A program made the translations under genes and the position numbers. A stretch of 64,000 nucleotides of DNA from Candidatus Magasanikiibacteriota bacterium (GTDB taxonomy: Bacteria; Patescibacteriota; Patescibacteriia; Magasanikbacterales; GWA2-37-8): NCBI GenBank assembly GCA_041665405.1, contig JBAYIZ010000002.1, positions 7,300-71,299 of the forward strand, read 5' to 3'. Shown here one piece after another: positions 4,973 through 15,529 of the stretch. Numbering within the stretch: the stretch's first letter is position 1; each line of letters begins with the position of its first letter. The notes under the pieces were generated by a model. The model saw nothing but the letters and a program-made list of their open reading frames with translations, searched no databases and was not told the DNA's origin.

Positions 4973-7489
4973 TTATTTAACAAACAGTTGCTTTTCGTTA
5001 ATATCCAAAGTGTACTGTTTTTTATTTTTCTTTTTCAAAATTTCGGTAGCCATTAATTTTTCTATGGCCGTTCGTAGCTCACGGCGAATAGTGCGGGCAT
5101 TGGCGTTGGTAGTCGGAAGGGAAGCAACATAATCTGAAAGTATTTTTTCCTTGGTAATTACCTTGGTGTGATATTGCGCGAGCTGTTCGTTGAATTTCGC
5201 GATTTCTAGTTCGGCAATTTTGGCTAGATCAATGGCAGTCAAAGTATTGAACAAACAAATTTTATCCAAGCGATTGATAAGCTCAGGAGAAAAATATTCT
5301 TTTAGCTTTTCGGTAATTTTTTTATTATAAACTTCACTCTGAGCACCAGTTCCGCCAAAGCCAAAATCGGCACGTTTGGCGACTTCTGCACCCAACGAAG
5401 TGGTTAGTATTATTATAGCATGTTTTAAAGAAATTTTCTTCCCCGTAGAGTCGGTAATTTCCCCATTTTCCAGAATTTGTAATAATAGCTTGGTGACGTC
5501 TCTGTGTGCCTTGTCTATTTCATCAAAAAGCACTACGCAATGTGGGTTGTTTTTTATCTTGTCGGTAAAATTATTACTCTCTTTATAGCCAATATAACCG
5601 GCGGGAGAACCCAAAAGTTTGGACACGCCAAAACTTTCATTGAATTCGCTCATGTCCAATTTTATTAATGAACCTTTGTTTGGGTATAGAGTTTCAGCGA
5701 TAGTTTTGGCCAGTTCGGTTTTGCCCATACCACTTTGGCCGACAAACATAAAAGAGGCTAGTGGTCTATCTGGGTGGTTGAGCCCGAGTCTAGCGCGATT
5801 AATAATTTCGGCGACTTCATGCGTTACATTGTCTTGTCCGATGACTAGCGATTTTAATTTATCTTCCAAATCTAGTAATTCATTTTTTTCTTCCATGATA
5901 AGTTCACTCGGTTTAGATCCAATAATTTTAGCAATTTGTTCTAATACATCATGGTCGGTAATTTCACCGAGAAATTCAGTCTTTTTTTCTTTAGCAATTT
6001 TATTTTCAATATCTATTTCAAGTTTTAATTTTTCTTCTTGTTTTTTGAATTTTACTGCATCGTCAAATTTATCTGAAAGTGCGGCTGCTTCTTTAGCGGA
6101 AATTATTTTTTCTAATTTTTGTTTGAGACGTTCTATTTTTCCCACCCAAGAAGAATTTTTGGAGTTGATTCTTTTCGCGGCGGCAGTTTCGTCTAATATG
6201 TCGATAGCCTTATCTGGTAAAAATTTATTGGTGATGTATCTCTGTGACAGACGAACCGATGCTTCTACCGCAGATTTAGTAATTTTTATACTGTGAAAAA
6301 TTTCGTAGTTGGTTTTAATTCCTTCAAGAATTTTTACTGAATCTTCGGCCGTTGGCTCTTTGACAAAAATAGGTTGGAAGCGACGTTCTAGTGCCGAATC
6401 ACTTTCAATGTGCTTTTTGAATTCATTTAAAGTGGTAGATCCAATACAGCGAATTTGGCCTCGTGCTAGCGCTGGTTTGAGAATATTGGCGGCATCCATA
6501 GTACCTTGGCCACTGCCCGCTCCGACGATGTTGTGCAATTCATCGATAAATAAAATAATATTTGGATTGGCCGCGACGTCATCAATCACCTGGCGCAGAC
6601 GTCCTTCAAATTCACCGCGATAAATAGTACCAGCAATCAGTAACCCCATATCGAGGGCGTAGACTTTTTTGTTTAACAAAATATCTGGTACTTTATTTTG
6701 TAAAATACGTTTGGCTAGACCTTCGACGATAGCAGTTTTACCAACACCAGGTTCACCCAATAGTACCGGATTATTTTTAGTACGGCGACAAAGAATTTGA
6801 ATCAATCTTTCGATTTCGTTTTCTCGTCCGATGATTGGATCAATATTTTTTTGTAATTCCGGATTGGTAAGATTGGTGGCAAAAAAATCCAGAGCCATTT
6901 CTTTTTTACCAGATCGTTTATTATTTTTTGATGAGATAGGGGACTGATGCACATCACTATGTTCTGATCCCAACAAACTATCTTGGATTCTATCTACCGC
7001 TTCCATTACTTCATTTATTTGGGGGAATTGTGAGGCATTGGTAAGTACAATATTTAGTTGTTTGGAAATATCCGTCAACGAAACTTTATTATCTTTTAAA
7101 ATTAAATTAATTTTAGGATCATTTAGTTCGATTGTTCCTTTCAACAAATGCTCTGTGCCAATATAGTTGTGTAAATGTTCTTGAGCGATAGTCATAGCCT
7201 TTTCCACTGCAAATTTTGCGTCAGCGGACAATGCGGTCATTTCTATTTCTGTTGTGTTAGTTGTCTTTTTGATATTAGCAGTCGGCAGTTCCAAAATTAT
7301 TTTTTCCACGTTTTTTAAATCAATTTTTAGACGGTTTAATATTTCAGCCGCCACAGAGCCTTTTTGGTTTTGTAAAATGAAAAACAGATGAACAGGCTCT
7401 ACCTCTTTATTTTCTAGCTTTGTCGCCAATTGAATGCTTTTGCTCAGTACGTCTTTAAGGTGGGTTGAAAATCTATCTAAAATAGACAT
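4973..7489 (-). CDS. clpC: Clp/Hsp100 AAA+ ATPase, ClpC-like (two NBDs, Clp_N domain, putative ClpP-docking FGF loop)
   Basis: Clp N-terminal repeat region. NBD1 Walker A GEPGVGKT and NBD2 Walker A GQSGMGKT. Short middle domain and a ...RADFGFGG... loop resembling the ClpP-interaction tripeptide, favouring ClpC over ClpB. Confidence 0.85.
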
Positions 7490-12263: not shown

Positions 12264-12494
12264 ATGGAAGCAACCGTACAAAAAACAACTTCAAAGGGGC
12301 AGATTACTTTGCCAAAAGTATGGAGGGGGCAATTTAAAACCACTCATTTTGTGTTGGAATCTAATAGTGATATTATGATTATCCGTCCAATTTTTTTGGA
12401 TGATCCGAATAATTATAAAACCATATTTAATGCAGATAGAGATAATAAAGGCAAAGGAATATCTGCAAAGAAGTTGTTGAAGTGTATAAAATAA
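12264..12494 (+). CDS. AbrB/MazE/SpoVT-family DNA-binding protein (swapped-hairpin beta-barrel), possible regulator/antitoxin-like
   Basis: ...TSKGQITLPKVWRGQF... matches the AbrB/MazE N-terminal motif. 76 aa. No adjacent toxin-like ORF was detected. Confidence 0.55.
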   Translation: MEATVQKTTSKGQITLPKVWRGQFKTTHFVLESNSDIMIIRPIFLDDPNNYKTIFNADRDNKGKGISAKKLLKCIK

Positions 12495-12714: not shown

Positions 12715-12821
12715 ACAAATTATCAAAAAGAAGACTGGGAAACGCACACCCAGTCAAGGTAGCAAGCTTTAAGCTCGATAGGTTTCGGGTAAGGAGTAAG
12801 CTAATAAGTTGGAGGTGCGCC

Positions 12822-13646
12822 ATGGCGCGCAAAGACAAGGATCTCAAGGAAGTCCTCGGCAACTGGACGATCGGGTTCGAGGCGCTCAGCGCCCTCGTTT
12901 ACGCCATCCTCAAGAAGGGGGGCGGGATCGAGGATCTGAGTCGGCTCAGCGACAAGGAGGATACGACGGTCGTCGATCAGGTCGCCGATCTGCTCGTTCG
13001 TCCGAAGGTCGTTGCGGAACAGCTCGTGGTTCCGCCGCCCCCGCCCAAGCCCGTCGCCCTTCGGATCGAGGACTTCGTCACGCCGATGAAGGACGATCAG
13101 GTGCCGACCATCTTGCTCGTGTTCGTCAGCATCTGGCGCATGATCGCAAACTGGCTCGGCTACACCGGTCCGATCGCGTGGCGCATTCGTGAGGGCTTCA
13201 CCCTCAAGACGATTGCTCCGCAGGTGGGTCCGTGCCGCAAGGACTTCCAGTATCTCCAGAACTGGAACTTCCCGGACGAGCCGACCAAGGACTGCATCGT
13301 TTTCTGGATTCCGCGCCTCGTGGTCGGAAGTACCAGCAAGTCGGTTTCGGAACAGATGAAGCTCTTGGCAGATCTCCGTAAGCAGTTCAATCTGCCCGAG
13401 CACCACCTGTCCGGGTTCGGTTCGGTCACCGTCCTCGCCGCTCTCATTCTCGCCCATCACAAGCTGACGGGCGAGATGGTCCCGTTGGGCGGCAACTGGA
13501 CCCGCACCGACACCTGCGGTTCGGGCGGCGGTCGCCTCGGCCTGGGCTGGGTCGGGGGCGCTCTCTGCTGCGGCGTCTGGAGCTGGGATGGGGTCAGGTA
13601 CGGTAGTGTCGGCGCCTTCCCGCTGGGGGTGGAACTCGAACACTAG
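12822..13646 (+). CDS. DGR target (variable) protein; C-terminal ~37 codons form the variable repeat (VR); whole gene anomalously GC-rich (~60+% vs ~33% background)
   Basis: GGAGG RBS upstream of ATG. 3' end (13515-13625) matches TR 13981-14091 with all mismatches at TR adenines. The opposite-strand ORF 12801..13643 is a high-GC artefact. Confidence 0.7.
   Translation: MARKDKDLKEVLGNWTIGFEALSALVYAILKKGGGIEDLSRLSDKEDTTVVDQVADLLVRPKVVAEQLVVPPPPPKPVALRIEDFVTPMKDDQVPTILLVFVSIWRMIANWLGYTGPIAWRIREGFTLKTIAPQVGPCRKDFQYLQNWNFPDEPTKDCIVFWIPRLVVGSTSKSVSEQMKLLADLRKQFNLPEHHLSGFGSVTVLAALILAHHKLTGEMVPLGGNWTRTDTCGSGGGRLGLGWVGGALCCGVWSWDGVRYGSVGAFPLGVELEH
13515..13625 (+). repeat. DGR variable repeat (VR) followed by GC-rich IMH-like sequence ggggtggaactcgaacac (13626-13643)
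   Basis: 111 nt aligned codon-by-codon with TR. By hand count 22 differences, all where TR has A (e.g. AAC->GGC/TGC/GTC/AGC/TAC). All non-A positions are identical. Confidence 0.8.
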
Positions 13647-13980
13647 GACACTCGGTCCTTCGTTCGGTCACTCTTGGCAACTTGGACTCTCGTCGGTGGT
13701 ACACTTCATGTGTATCATCGGCGGGGGTCCTTCTTTATTTTATAAAAATTTGATATAATTCTATCGGCTGTATCGATAGTGTTTGCGCCCACGGGTGCAG
13801 GCCGGCAGCACAGGGTATTTATTGATCAGAATAATAAAGCGTACGCGTTTTATTAGCGTATCATTAAATATTTGAACTTCTTTTACACCCCGTGTCAAAC
13901 ATTATTGAGTTTGTGACTCAGAATTATATTCAACCCAAAGAGTATTCAATGGGTGGTGTTTCGGGTGGTGTTTGGCATAT

Positions 13981-14091
13981 AGCGATTCGGACGGCAATCG
14001 CCTCAACCTGAACTGGGTCGAGGGCACTCTCAACTGCGACAACTGGAACTGGGATGAGGACAGGAACAGTAATGTCGGCGCCTTCCCGCTG
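13981..14091 (+). repeat. DGR template repeat (TR), non-coding, AAC-rich (six AAC and two AAT codons in VR frame), followed by IMH*-like atgatgtaaatcgaaaaaac
   Basis: No start codon in frame (preceded by TGA at 13915). Adenine-containing counterpart of VR. Located between the target gene and avd/RT. Confidence 0.8.
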
Positions 14092-14106
14092 ATGATGTAA
14101 ATCGAA

Positions 14107-14134
14107 AAAACATCCTCGCTATTGAGGATGTTTT
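14107..14134. terminator. Perfect 11-bp stem hairpin aaaacatcctc-gctatt-gaggatgtttt immediately 3' of TR and 3' of avd (convergent); terminator and/or DGR RNA 3' structural element
   Basis: Inverted repeat seen directly, flanked by A-run and T-run. Confidence 0.5.
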
Positions 14135-14145
14135 GTTTGTAAATA

Positions 14146-14478
14146 TTATTTTTTCATTTCTTTTATCCACCCACCCATCATTTTACCGGCAGTTATGAGT
14201 TGTCCGGAGAGTTGGGAATATTTATTTGTGTTTAATCCTTTTATTTCCCACAAGATAGTTATGAAATATTTTAATGTGTCCAATTTTTTACTTATTTTTT
14301 CAAGGAATATTATTTTTTCTGTGCGTTGAATATAACTGGCGGTGAGAGTTAATTCAATTATGTCGGTAAAAAGATTGTCAATTTTTGTTCCCAAAGTATG
14401 TTTTGTTAATTTTGGCAAGTGGATTAGAAAACCATGCCACAATTTGTAACTTTCATTAAACTTAGTTAAAATTGGCAA
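14146..14478 (-). CDS. avd: Avd-like DGR accessory variability determinant (four-helix-bundle / '23S rRNA intervening sequence protein' family), TTG start
   Basis: 110-aa small helical basic protein with the general pattern of the four-helix-bundle family to which bAvd belongs. Sits between TR and RT, but on the opposite strand. Confidence 0.6.
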   Translation of the reverse strand: MPILTKFNESYKLWHGFLIHLPKLTKHTLGTKIDNLFTDIIELTLTASYIQRTEKIIFLEKISKKLDTLKYFITILWEIKGLNTNKYSQLSGQLITAGKMMGGWIKEMKK

Positions 14479-14488
14479 ATTTTGCTGA

Positions 14489-14498
14489 GGGGGGGGGG
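14489..14498. repeat. Homopolymeric G10 (C10 on minus strand) tract in the 43-bp divergent avd/RT intergenic region
   Basis: gctgaGGGGGGGGGGttaaaag, highly atypical in ~33% GC DNA. Potential slipped-strand phase-variation site or sequencing artefact. Confidence 0.6.
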
Positions 14499-14521
14499 TT
14501 AAAAGAACCGTTTATATTATT

Positions 14522-15529
14522 ATGAAAATTCAATTGCGTCATAGTTATAAAGAATTAGTTAATTTGGAAAATTTGTTATTTGCTTGGCAAGAGTTTATTG
14601 TTGGTAAAAAGAATAAATTGGACGCGCAAATTTTTAATCGCGATCTCATGGACAATATTGTAGAGCTTCACGAGAGTTTGGTCAATCATACATATTGTCA
14701 TGGTGGATACGAAAGTTTTTATGTCACTGATCCAAAGCGACGACATATTCACAAGGCGAGTGTGAGAGACAGGCTGTTGCATCATGCGATTTATCGGATT
14801 TTGTATCCGTTTTTTGATCGGACTTTTATTTCCGATTCATTTTCGTGTCGCGATGACAAAGGGATGCACAGGGCGTTGGATAGGTTTAGAGCGATGAATT
14901 TTGAGGTTAGTAAAAACCACGCTCGCACCTGCTGGGTTCTCAAATGTGATATTCAAAAATTTTTTGATAGTATTGACCACGGAATTTTATTGAATATTTT
15001 ATCTGAGCATATTTCTGACCGAGACATTTTGAATTTATTAAAAAATGTAATTGATAGCTATAATAGTGAAACAAACGGGGTGGGAGTGGGTTTACCACTT
15101 GGCAACCTCACTTCACAATTATTTTCCAACGTATATATGAATGTGTTTGACCAATTTGTTAAACACAAACTTAAAGTAAAAAATTATATCCGCTATGCGG
15201 ATGATTTTGTATTTCTTTCTCATGATAAACAATATTTAGAAAATTTAATACCTCAAATTCGGGATTTTTTAAGTGAAAAATTAAGATTGACTTTGCATCC
15301 TAGAAAAATATATTTGCAAACCATAGCATCAGGGATTGATTTTCTTGGGTGGAAACATTTTGCCAACCACCGTGTACTGAGAAAGACAACCCAAAAAAGA
15401 ATGATGAGAAATATTGAGATTCATCCGACAAACGAAACTTTACAATCATATTTGGGATTATTGAAACATGGGAATAGTGGAAAGATAAAAAATGAATTAT
15501 TGATTATGTCTTGGGTGTGGAGGATATGA
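14522..15529 (+). CDS. Diversity-generating retroelement reverse transcriptase
   Basis: RT motifs: ...KCDIQKFFDSIDH (motif A), LPLGNLTSQLFSNVYMN (the [ILV]GxxxSQ motif diagnostic of DGR RTs), RYADDFVF (YADD catalytic box), GIDFLGW. 335 aa. TGA stop. Confidence 0.9.
   Translation: MKIQLRHSYKELVNLENLLFAWQEFIVGKKNKLDAQIFNRDLMDNIVELHESLVNHTYCHGGYESFYVTDPKRRHIHKASVRDRLLHHAIYRILYPFFDRTFISDSFSCRDDKGMHRALDRFRAMNFEVSKNHARTCWVLKCDIQKFFDSIDHGILLNILSEHISDRDILNLLKNVIDSYNSETNGVGVGLPLGNLTSQLFSNVYMNVFDQFVKHKLKVKNYIRYADDFVFLSHDKQYLENLIPQIRDFLSEKLRLTLHPRKIYLQTIASGIDFLGWKHFANHRVLRKTTQKRMMRNIEIHPTNETLQSYLGLLKHGNSGKIKNELLIMSWVWRI

Follow-up and report, generated by a model that had tools for sequence, protein, structure and literature searches.

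Gene content of the locus

We analyzed a 64-kb window (64,000 nucleotides, positions 7,300 to 71,299 of contig JBAYIZ010000002.1, assembly GCA_041665405.1) from Candidatus Magasanikiibacteriota; coordinates below are those of the window. With high confidence, we identify in it a chromosomal diversity-generating retroelement (DGR) with the layout target-TR-(avd)-RT, called B3, that is typical for Candidate Phyla Radiation (CPR) bacteria. DGRs are known to use error-prone reverse transcription to alter the end of one protein. The parts of a DGR are all there: a target gene for a protein with a C-type-lectin fold, a template repeat (TR) and a variable repeat (VR), an inverted avd gene, and a reverse transcriptase (RT) gene. 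The target lies upstream, followed by the TR, an oppositely oriented avd, and finally the RT, and the host, Ca. Magasanikbacteria, belongs to the CPR. Wu et al. 2018 (PMC5758913) report the B3 architecture TR-(avd)-RT in 90% of the DGRs from the CPR; since this layout is typical of the CPR, the window element is best described as a new member of a known DGR class.

The target (variable-protein) gene (12822-13646, + strand) encodes 274 amino acids (aa): the N-terminal region is helical, a Pro-rich linker follows, and the VR sits in the C-terminal C-type-lectin/FGE-like domain. The best matches of the protein model were the DGR variable proteins TvpA, Mtd, and TaqVP, and a TvpA-like C-type lectin fold is predicted; no match was found in Pfam or NCBIfam, including none to Pfam FGE-sulfatase or DUF1566. 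A hypothetical protein of 100% identity is encoded by a Candidatus Magasanikbacteria metagenome-assembled genome (MAG). The family has 67 close homologs and 340 clusters at 50% identity, and all known homologs come from Patescibacteria-type records. When the family is aligned, the VR corresponds to the variable columns, and the C terminus keeps a conserved FPLGVE.

The RT gene (14522-15529, + strand; 335 aa) encodes the motifs LPLGNLTSQ and YADD and matches RVT_1 with an E value of 1.9e-24. NCBIfam has no DGR-specific RT profile; DGR-type RTs are recognized by the motifs (I/L)GxxxSQ and YxDD together with similarity to bRT. The closest solved structure belongs to the 8ub7 series (E = 1.5e-43), and identity to BPP-1 Brt is 32% across 305 aa (E = 6e-52). 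The avd gene (14146-14478, - strand; 110 aa) runs opposite to the TR and the RT. Its product passes the Pfam PF22296 bAvd cutoff (44 bits, cutoff 40), and BLAST found no similarity between it and BPP-1 Avd. Avd is present in most DGRs, though not in all.

The VR differs from the TR at adenines only

A sequence-only reading of the window had counted 22 differences between the VR (13515-13625, + strand) and the TR (13981-14091, + strand), every one at a TR adenine, with all C, G, and T positions identical. The exact alignment bears this out. The two repeats align without gaps at an offset of 466 nucleotides (nt), with 22 mismatches, each of them at an adenine of the TR (17 A>G, 5 A>T, and no A>C); one of these, 13515/13981, is the exact edge at which homology collapses, so that the count within the repeat is 21 or 22. 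Over the 111-position span, 22 of the 27 TR adenines (81%) are altered in the VR and none of the 84 other positions is. The probability that 22 mismatches fall entirely on 27 adenines among 111 positions is 8.5e-19. The mutagenized sites occupy 13515/13519-13606, and the block that follows them (13607-13625) is free of A and identical to the TR.

The VR is in frame with the target open reading frame (ORF) and makes up its final 44 codons. Read in the same frame, the TR (AGC GAT TCG GAC GGC AAT CGC CTC AAC CTG AAC ...) contains six AAC and two AAT codons and has no A at third codon positions. The changes in the VR fall on positions 1 and 2 of AAC/AAT-type codons, and 17 codons are altered in the present copy; the individual examples given earlier, such as AAC to GGC, and the description of the TR as rich in AAC are likewise correct. 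When the TR adenines are replaced by N, the resulting search pattern matches the window at just two places, the VR and the TR, with none expected by chance, and an independent repeat search also recovers the pair.

The same pattern extends to related loci, labeled L001-L099. Target homologs are encoded at 19 genome loci, 7 of which share the order target-TR-(avd)-RT; TR/VR pairs at 7 or 8 family loci are close to adenine-only, with 151 changes at A versus 2 others. A wider clade is formed by 80 metagenome loci whose RTs are 45 to 65% identical to that of the window. Among these, avd was found in 70, always inverted and directly upstream of the RT, and the 10 loci without a detected avd have less than 60 nt of sequence available upstream of the RT. 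Adenine-biased TR/VR pairs occur in 44 of the 80, with the VR 380 to 590 nt upstream of the TR; the targets of these RT-related cassettes are not homologous to the window target family. In all, the adenine pattern is present in about 50 independent cassettes. About 70 to 80% of TR adenines differ in the VR across the window, L001-L018, and L020-L099 pairs, and A>G predominates among the changes (66% in the target family and 60% in the wider clade).

The existence of a repeat would also fit an ordinary duplication, with differences that arose by chance, deamination, RNA editing, or sequencing artifact, and it is the only observation that favors this explanation. The all-adenine spectrum (P of ~8e-19), the A>T changes, which are not a signature of deamination, the placement of changes at codon positions 1 and 2 of AAC/AAT-type codons, the adjacent RT and Avd genes, and the recurrence of the pattern in about 50 independent cassettes leave it with virtually no probability; we regard it as effectively refuted. 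The pair had also been described as direct evidence of active or recent retrohoming. That description holds for past retrohoming with no ordinary substitution since (0 of 84 non-A positions), and it does not carry over to present-day activity.

Several of the related loci have features of their own. L052 holds two cores of TR and upstream leader (440-597 and 2809-2957), one of them beside a truncated RT. L053 is a multitarget cassette, with one TR and two VRs on opposite strands (314-444 on the + strand and 2457-2587 on the - strand). L003, L004, L006, L008, L011, L014, L016, and L018 are titled "uncultured Gammaproteobacteria bacterium" yet carry a Patescibacteria-type target, and several of the MAGs with such titles also hold a full CPR-type DGR cassette. 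These titles are probably pipeline defaults rather than real taxonomy.

A three-helix RNA abuts the TR on its 5' side

The clade shares a conserved stretch of about 100 nt that directly adjoins the TR on its 5' side and folds as a three-helix junction (13892-13978, + strand). Its helices are P1 (13892-13903 with 13967-13978), P2 (13907-13911 with 13915-13919), and P3 (13933-13937 with 13950-13954, plus 13940-13941 with 13946-13947), all on the + strand. According to RNAalifold, 21 of 24 pairs show compensatory changes; the share of paired cells is 95.4%, compared with 33 to 50% in slid controls, and double changes number 215, compared with 23 to 47. The covariance model has a single credible match in the window (13844-13994; 105.5 bits, E = 3.6e-22), with a score like those of other cassettes. 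It matches 59 related loci, all adjoining DGR cores, and no target-only locus. A search of 13400-14600 against Rfam 15 returned no matching family at E values of up to 5.

Directly 5' of P1 lies a putative primer strand, P0 (13880-13891, + strand; CUUUUACACCCC), assigned by analogy with Bordetella spacer (Sp) positions 48 to 56. Its segment UUUACA (13882-13887) pairs with UGUAAA (14096-14101) just 3' of the TR. Across the clade, positions 10 to 18 of the strand 5' of P1 pair with RNA 3' of the TR in 74 to 86% of cassettes, compared with 41 to 48% when slid. Thus, the leader strand can pair with both flanks of the TR, which would leave the TR looped out.

The ends of the TR RNA can be placed provisionally. 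On the 5' side, an extended -10-like element (TGATATAAT; 13751-13759, + strand) is a putative promoter, and TGnTATAAT or TATACT elements occupy the equivalent site in L004, L008, L014, L010, and L018. On the 3' side, only ~45 nt separate the TR from the avd stop codon, and they comprise IMH* (see below), an A-run, and a hairpin. The segment at 14105-14140, which lies between the TR and the convergent avd stop and consists of an A-run, a 7-bp hairpin (CATCCTC/GAGGATG), and a T-run, resembles a bidirectional terminator, and the TR RNA probably has its 3' end there; the structure of this segment is retained in nine of nine family cassettes whose sequences differ.

Within the 5' part of the leader (13766-13880), we also noted a conserved block, GGCUG(C/U)(G/A)UCG...GCCGGCAGCACAGGG, that folds as a hairpin and precedes a second, long AT-rich hairpin. 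The hairpin of the block shows compensatory changes in L001, L004, L007, L008, L010, L012, L014, and L018, and the block seems specific to this subfamily.

The leader complements the IMH, not the IMH*

The shared 19-nt A-free block is followed by sequences that had been read as an initiation of mutagenic homing (IMH) site after the VR (13626-13640, + strand; GGGGTGGAACTCGAA) and an IMH* after the TR (14092-14106, + strand; ATGATGTAAATCGAA). The boundary sequences had been given correctly, and comparison of cassettes supports the reading: the difference recurs in the family, and it is the IMH, not the IMH*, that complements the leader RNA. The two sequences are identical at 10 of 15 positions, and their mismatches (A>G, T>G, A>G, T>G, A>C) are not adenine specific; the two T>G differences indicate that the tail is not a product of adenine mutagenesis and that the two form a distinct IMH/IMH* pair. 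The core of the IMH, GGGGTG (13626-13631), is complementary to CACCCC of the leader (13886-13891) and also encodes the conserved G-V-E at the C terminus of the protein.

The difference between the VR (...CTG GGGGTG) and the TR (...CTG ATG(A/G)TG) recurs in eight other family cassettes. Throughout the target family, leader CACCCC pairs with GGGGTG of the VR and the TR carries ATGATG or ATGGTG; in most other cassettes, leader UACUUG pairs with CAAGTA of the VR and the TR carries CAACTC. Over the six positions nearest the junction, at which the IMH departs from the IMH*, it is the VR version that the leader complements, and individual compensations are seen in L058, L062, L077, L026/L078, L086, L034, and L069. 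The leader complements the VR-only base in 27 cases versus 2 at position 7 and in 19 versus 5 at position 5; at positions 11 to 20, complementarity is to the TR-only base (231 versus 74). Contiguous leader matches average 4.06 nt for the IMH and 1.42 nt for the IMH*, and a permuted-cassette control gave a mean of 1.79 ± 0.23 nt and a maximum of 2.60 nt (2,000 permutations).

Better pairing of a primer RNA with the IMH than with the IMH* has been proposed to set directionality in BPP-1 (Naorem et al. 2017, PMC5703328). Recomputed for BPP-1, the reverse complement of Sp 48-56 equals the VR at nine of nine positions and the TR at six of nine. The idea of an IMH primer, including a leader that guides target choice, is thus already known from that work; our contribution is comparative support for the pairing and the permuted position of the strand.

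The target gene stands apart in base composition

No stretch of the window is richer in GC than the target gene (GC content of 0.63; window mean, 0.37; standard deviation, 0.054). GC content at third codon positions (GC3) is 0.83 in the target, 0.31 in avd, 0.32 in the RT, and 0.22 to 0.38 in 37 other ORFs. The GC-rich island extends from the start codon of the target to its terminator; the target gene plus its 3' untranslated region was taken as 12790-13735. Target GC3 is above host GC3 at 20 of 20 family loci, where the RT and avd are close to or below the host level; among cassettes of the wider clade, 38 of 43 have a target GC3 above that of the RT, the mean excess being 0.19 and some of the ORF calls approximate.

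Such an island could be foreign DNA, from a recent transfer out of a high-GC donor or from a chimeric assembly, rather than an intrinsic feature. Its standing as the most GC-rich part of 64 kb would fit, as would the homologs with host-matching GC3 in high-GC CPR hosts (L012 and L016), and target modules differ among related RT cores, so module exchange does happen. A chimeric assembly is excluded, however, by the TR, which sits beside the AT-rich avd and matches the VR. Against transfer stand the recurrence of the excess in the family loci and the other cassettes just described and the restriction of homologs to Patescibacteria-type records. Moreover, RT, Avd, and target show similar divergence between cassettes, the single close pair being close for all three. 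In the trio L008, L011, and L014, the four-fold degenerate sites of the target are 22 to 30% diverged while GC3 stays at ~0.92, and the target changes between L008 and L014 are mostly C<->G (nine S-S, six S-W, and one W-W; S, C or G; W, A or T); the RT changes of the same two loci are 10 S-S, 37 S-W, and 5 W-W. We therefore consider a foreign origin unlikely. Given that GC3 holds steady while four-fold sites diverge and that synonymous changes are mostly C<->G, the high target GC3 appears to be actively maintained rather than a slowly vanishing trace of transfer. Candidate causes are biased conversion and selection, acting on either DNA or RNA.

We considered and rejected other sources of the excess. 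Whole-gene adenine mutagenesis or retro-copying of mRNA does not fit, as A and T are both depleted and C3 exceeds G3; A3/(A3+T3) is 0.37 in targets versus 0.40 to 0.47 in other ORFs. Amino-acid composition fails because the excess sits at third codon positions. An antisense ORF (12801-13643, - strand; 280 aa) spans the target, and stop codons interrupt it in 11 of 20 homologs, so it is neither credible as a gene nor as the cause of the GC content; it is a by-product of how rarely the target has A at third codon positions. Nor is the excess a general DGR property: in six phage DGRs, target GC3 lies within 0.00 to 0.09 of that of the neighbors.

CTNNG arrays and a terminator follow the VR

A modest array of four CTNGG motifs (13643-13685, + strand; CTAGG at 13643, CTCGG at 13651, CTTGG at 13673, and CTTGG at 13681) spans the stop codon and the 3' untranslated region, and a hairpin (AGGAC/GTCCT; 13645-13659, + strand) lies within it. 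In the clade, CTNNG units (CTTTG, CTTGG, CTTAG, CTAGG, and CTCGG) are enriched after VRs from the stop codon on (z = 9 to 21), with a spacing peak of 7 to 8 nt (117 of 206 spacings). Clusters of at least four units lie directly after VR ends in 15 of 25 cases (535 kb, both strands). The arrays occur in most related cassettes, before the target terminator, and orphan targets of the family have them too. No covariation of the CTNGG array with the primer strand was seen in the cassettes that we inspected by eye.

The target ends in a terminator-like hairpin (13684-13745, + strand) of ~20 pairs followed by a T-run; its several G-U pairs make it specific to the plus-strand RNA. On the other side of the target, just 5' of it, a small ORF (12264-12494, + strand; 76 aa) gives a weak AbrB/MazE-antitoxin-like match (E = 7e-4) under the Pfam cutoff.

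A model for mutagenic homing

Taken together, these features suggest the following course of events. Transcription would begin near 13766 and stop at the hairpin and U-run at ~14140, giving an RNA of ~370 nt that comprises the 5' leader, the TR, and a short 3' flank. Its leader (13880-13903) would pair with the 3' flank of the TR through P0 and with the 5' flank through P1, holding both TR ends at one junction. By homology with known DGRs, RT and Avd would start copying at the 3' end of the TR and make errors at adenines, with P1 probably acting as the stop for cDNA synthesis. The resulting strand of primer RNA plus cDNA would be colinearly complementary to VR plus IMH and not to TR plus IMH*; this predicts that the cDNA replaces 13515-13625 and that information flows from TR to VR only. 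The C-type-lectin-fold protein would in this way come to vary on its ligand-binding face, at up to 27 adenine-templated positions.

For the CPR B3 clade as a whole, we lean, by a little over even chances, toward a combination of a circularly permuted DGR RNA, a maintained high target GC3, and post-VR CTNNG arrays. In the permuted RNA, an equivalent of Sp would lie 5' of the TR and would comprise an IMH-complementary primer strand, P1 as a stop helix next to the 5' end of the TR, and the three-helix junction. The GC3 excess and the arrays may be unrecognized homing requirements in AT-rich, reduced genomes. The upstream RNA, its IMH complementarity, the GC3 split, and the post-VR arrays are undescribed in Rfam and in the DGR literature that we examined, a scope outside which Paul et al. 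2017 falls.

Several observations weigh against the overall reading of the window locus. Transcription and the ends of the TR RNA, the priming site, cDNA synthesis, and present-day diversification are inferred from sequence rather than observed. The consensus promoter scan did not call the TR RNA promoter, for which there is no -35 element, and the pairing of P0 with the TR flank in the window cassette is short (six contiguous pairs). In L080 and L082, the leader fits the TR flank (CGACTAATCT) better than the VR flank. The Avd protein stays under the cutoff of NCBIfam DivGenRetAVD (NF033474; 66 bits, cutoff 80). On the 3' side of the window IMH, there is just the 5-bp hairpin at 13645-13659 and no strong GC-rich inverted repeat; this hairpin is partly conserved in relatives, and the long hairpin at 13684-13730 lies 40 nt off and relies on G-U pairs. 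Finally, the exact IUPAC pattern with N at adenines found no further VR/TR copies in metagenome contigs, and the 90% identity cluster of the target has one member.

The last two observations would suit a DGR relic, in which retrohoming took place in the past, the element is now inactive, and the differences in the VR are fixed. Orphan targets without a nearby RT (L002, L005, and L006) point the same way, as does L007, where the repeat pair is decaying, with non-A mismatches, and no avd or RT was found downstream of the TR. But L007 also shows that decay leaves obvious non-A mismatches and would be visible in the window, where none of 84 non-A positions differs, all ORFs are intact with the catalytic motifs present, and the leader RNA scores comparably to other cassettes. 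A relic is thus quite improbable. The intact genes, the intact RNA motif, and the absence of non-adenine differences argue instead that homing was probably recent on the scale of point substitution.

As a DGR, the window element is ordinary but clean, from a phylum already known as DGR-rich, and it contributes a further hypervariable protein with a lectin fold, whose family comprises about 340 clusters and lacks a Pfam model. Its wider interest lies in about 50 independent cassettes in which a TR-adjacent RNA strand covaries with the IMH of the target. A bridging RNA seems able to lie on either side of the TR, which is relevant to DGR RNA annotation and to the engineering of compact DGRs. In addition, the stable GC3 split within the cassette (0.83 versus 0.31) points to a selective or conversion-like force on whole target genes that no current DGR model predicts.

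Comparison with known systems

Gene order, orientation, and host phylum are identical to those of the CPR B3 DGRs described by Wu et al. 2018, and the window target is likewise a small protein without a Pfam domain. Its VR class falls outside CLec1-3 and Ig1-2, and nothing contradicts B3 membership. Compared with Treponema denticola TvpA and other FGE-type lectin variable proteins, the target is only 12% identical, its N-terminal helical region is different, and its VR motif, RLxLxW...C..W.W...R...G.FPLGVE, is distinct.

A GC-rich inverted repeat 3' of the IMH is present in about one-third of DGRs and is required for efficient homing in BPP-1. The prototype Bordetella phage BPP-1 (mtd-avd-TR-brt) has such a cruciform, whereas the window has the CTNGG array at the position of that stem-loop. 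The BPP-1 DGR resides in a phage and the window element in a chromosome; in the window, avd is inverted and sits between TR and RT. In BPP-1, the GC3 of mtd equals that of its neighbors (0.86 and 0.85), and in the window, target GC3 is far above its surroundings. The fraction of adenines changed, 81% in the window, compares with ~50% per event in BPP-1 (PMC6182149).

RT-adjacent structured RNAs are known from the Rfam motifs RT-1 to RT-19, with proposed roles in DGRs and retrons; RT-10 lies between the BPP-1 TR and brt (Weinberg et al. 2017). The window RNA is of this general kind, but its motif lies upstream of the TR and matches none of these families. In BPP-1, the bridging and primer strand and its structured domain are in the 140-nt Sp, downstream of the TR, where Sp 53-56 pairs with TR 118-121 and Sp 59-70 with a segment upstream of the TR, forming the priming and "cPRT stop" duplexes (bioRxiv 10.1101/2023.10.23.563531); the Bordetella-type Sp also carries a stem-loop that binds Avd. 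In the window, the structured domain and the flank-complementary strand are instead both upstream of the TR. That preprint looked no farther than 40 nt on the upstream side of the TR and 100 nt on the downstream side, so that an upstream leader element would have been missed.

Apart from this order, the two systems have much in common. Both transfer information from TR to VR with adenine specificity, both have an Avd partner and related RTs, and in both an invariant GC-rich block is followed by IMH versus IMH*. In each, the primer RNA strand is more complementary to the IMH than to the IMH*, and one RNA strand bridges both ends of the TR. By analogy, the window RNA appears to work like the Bordetella RNA, with the order of its parts permuted.

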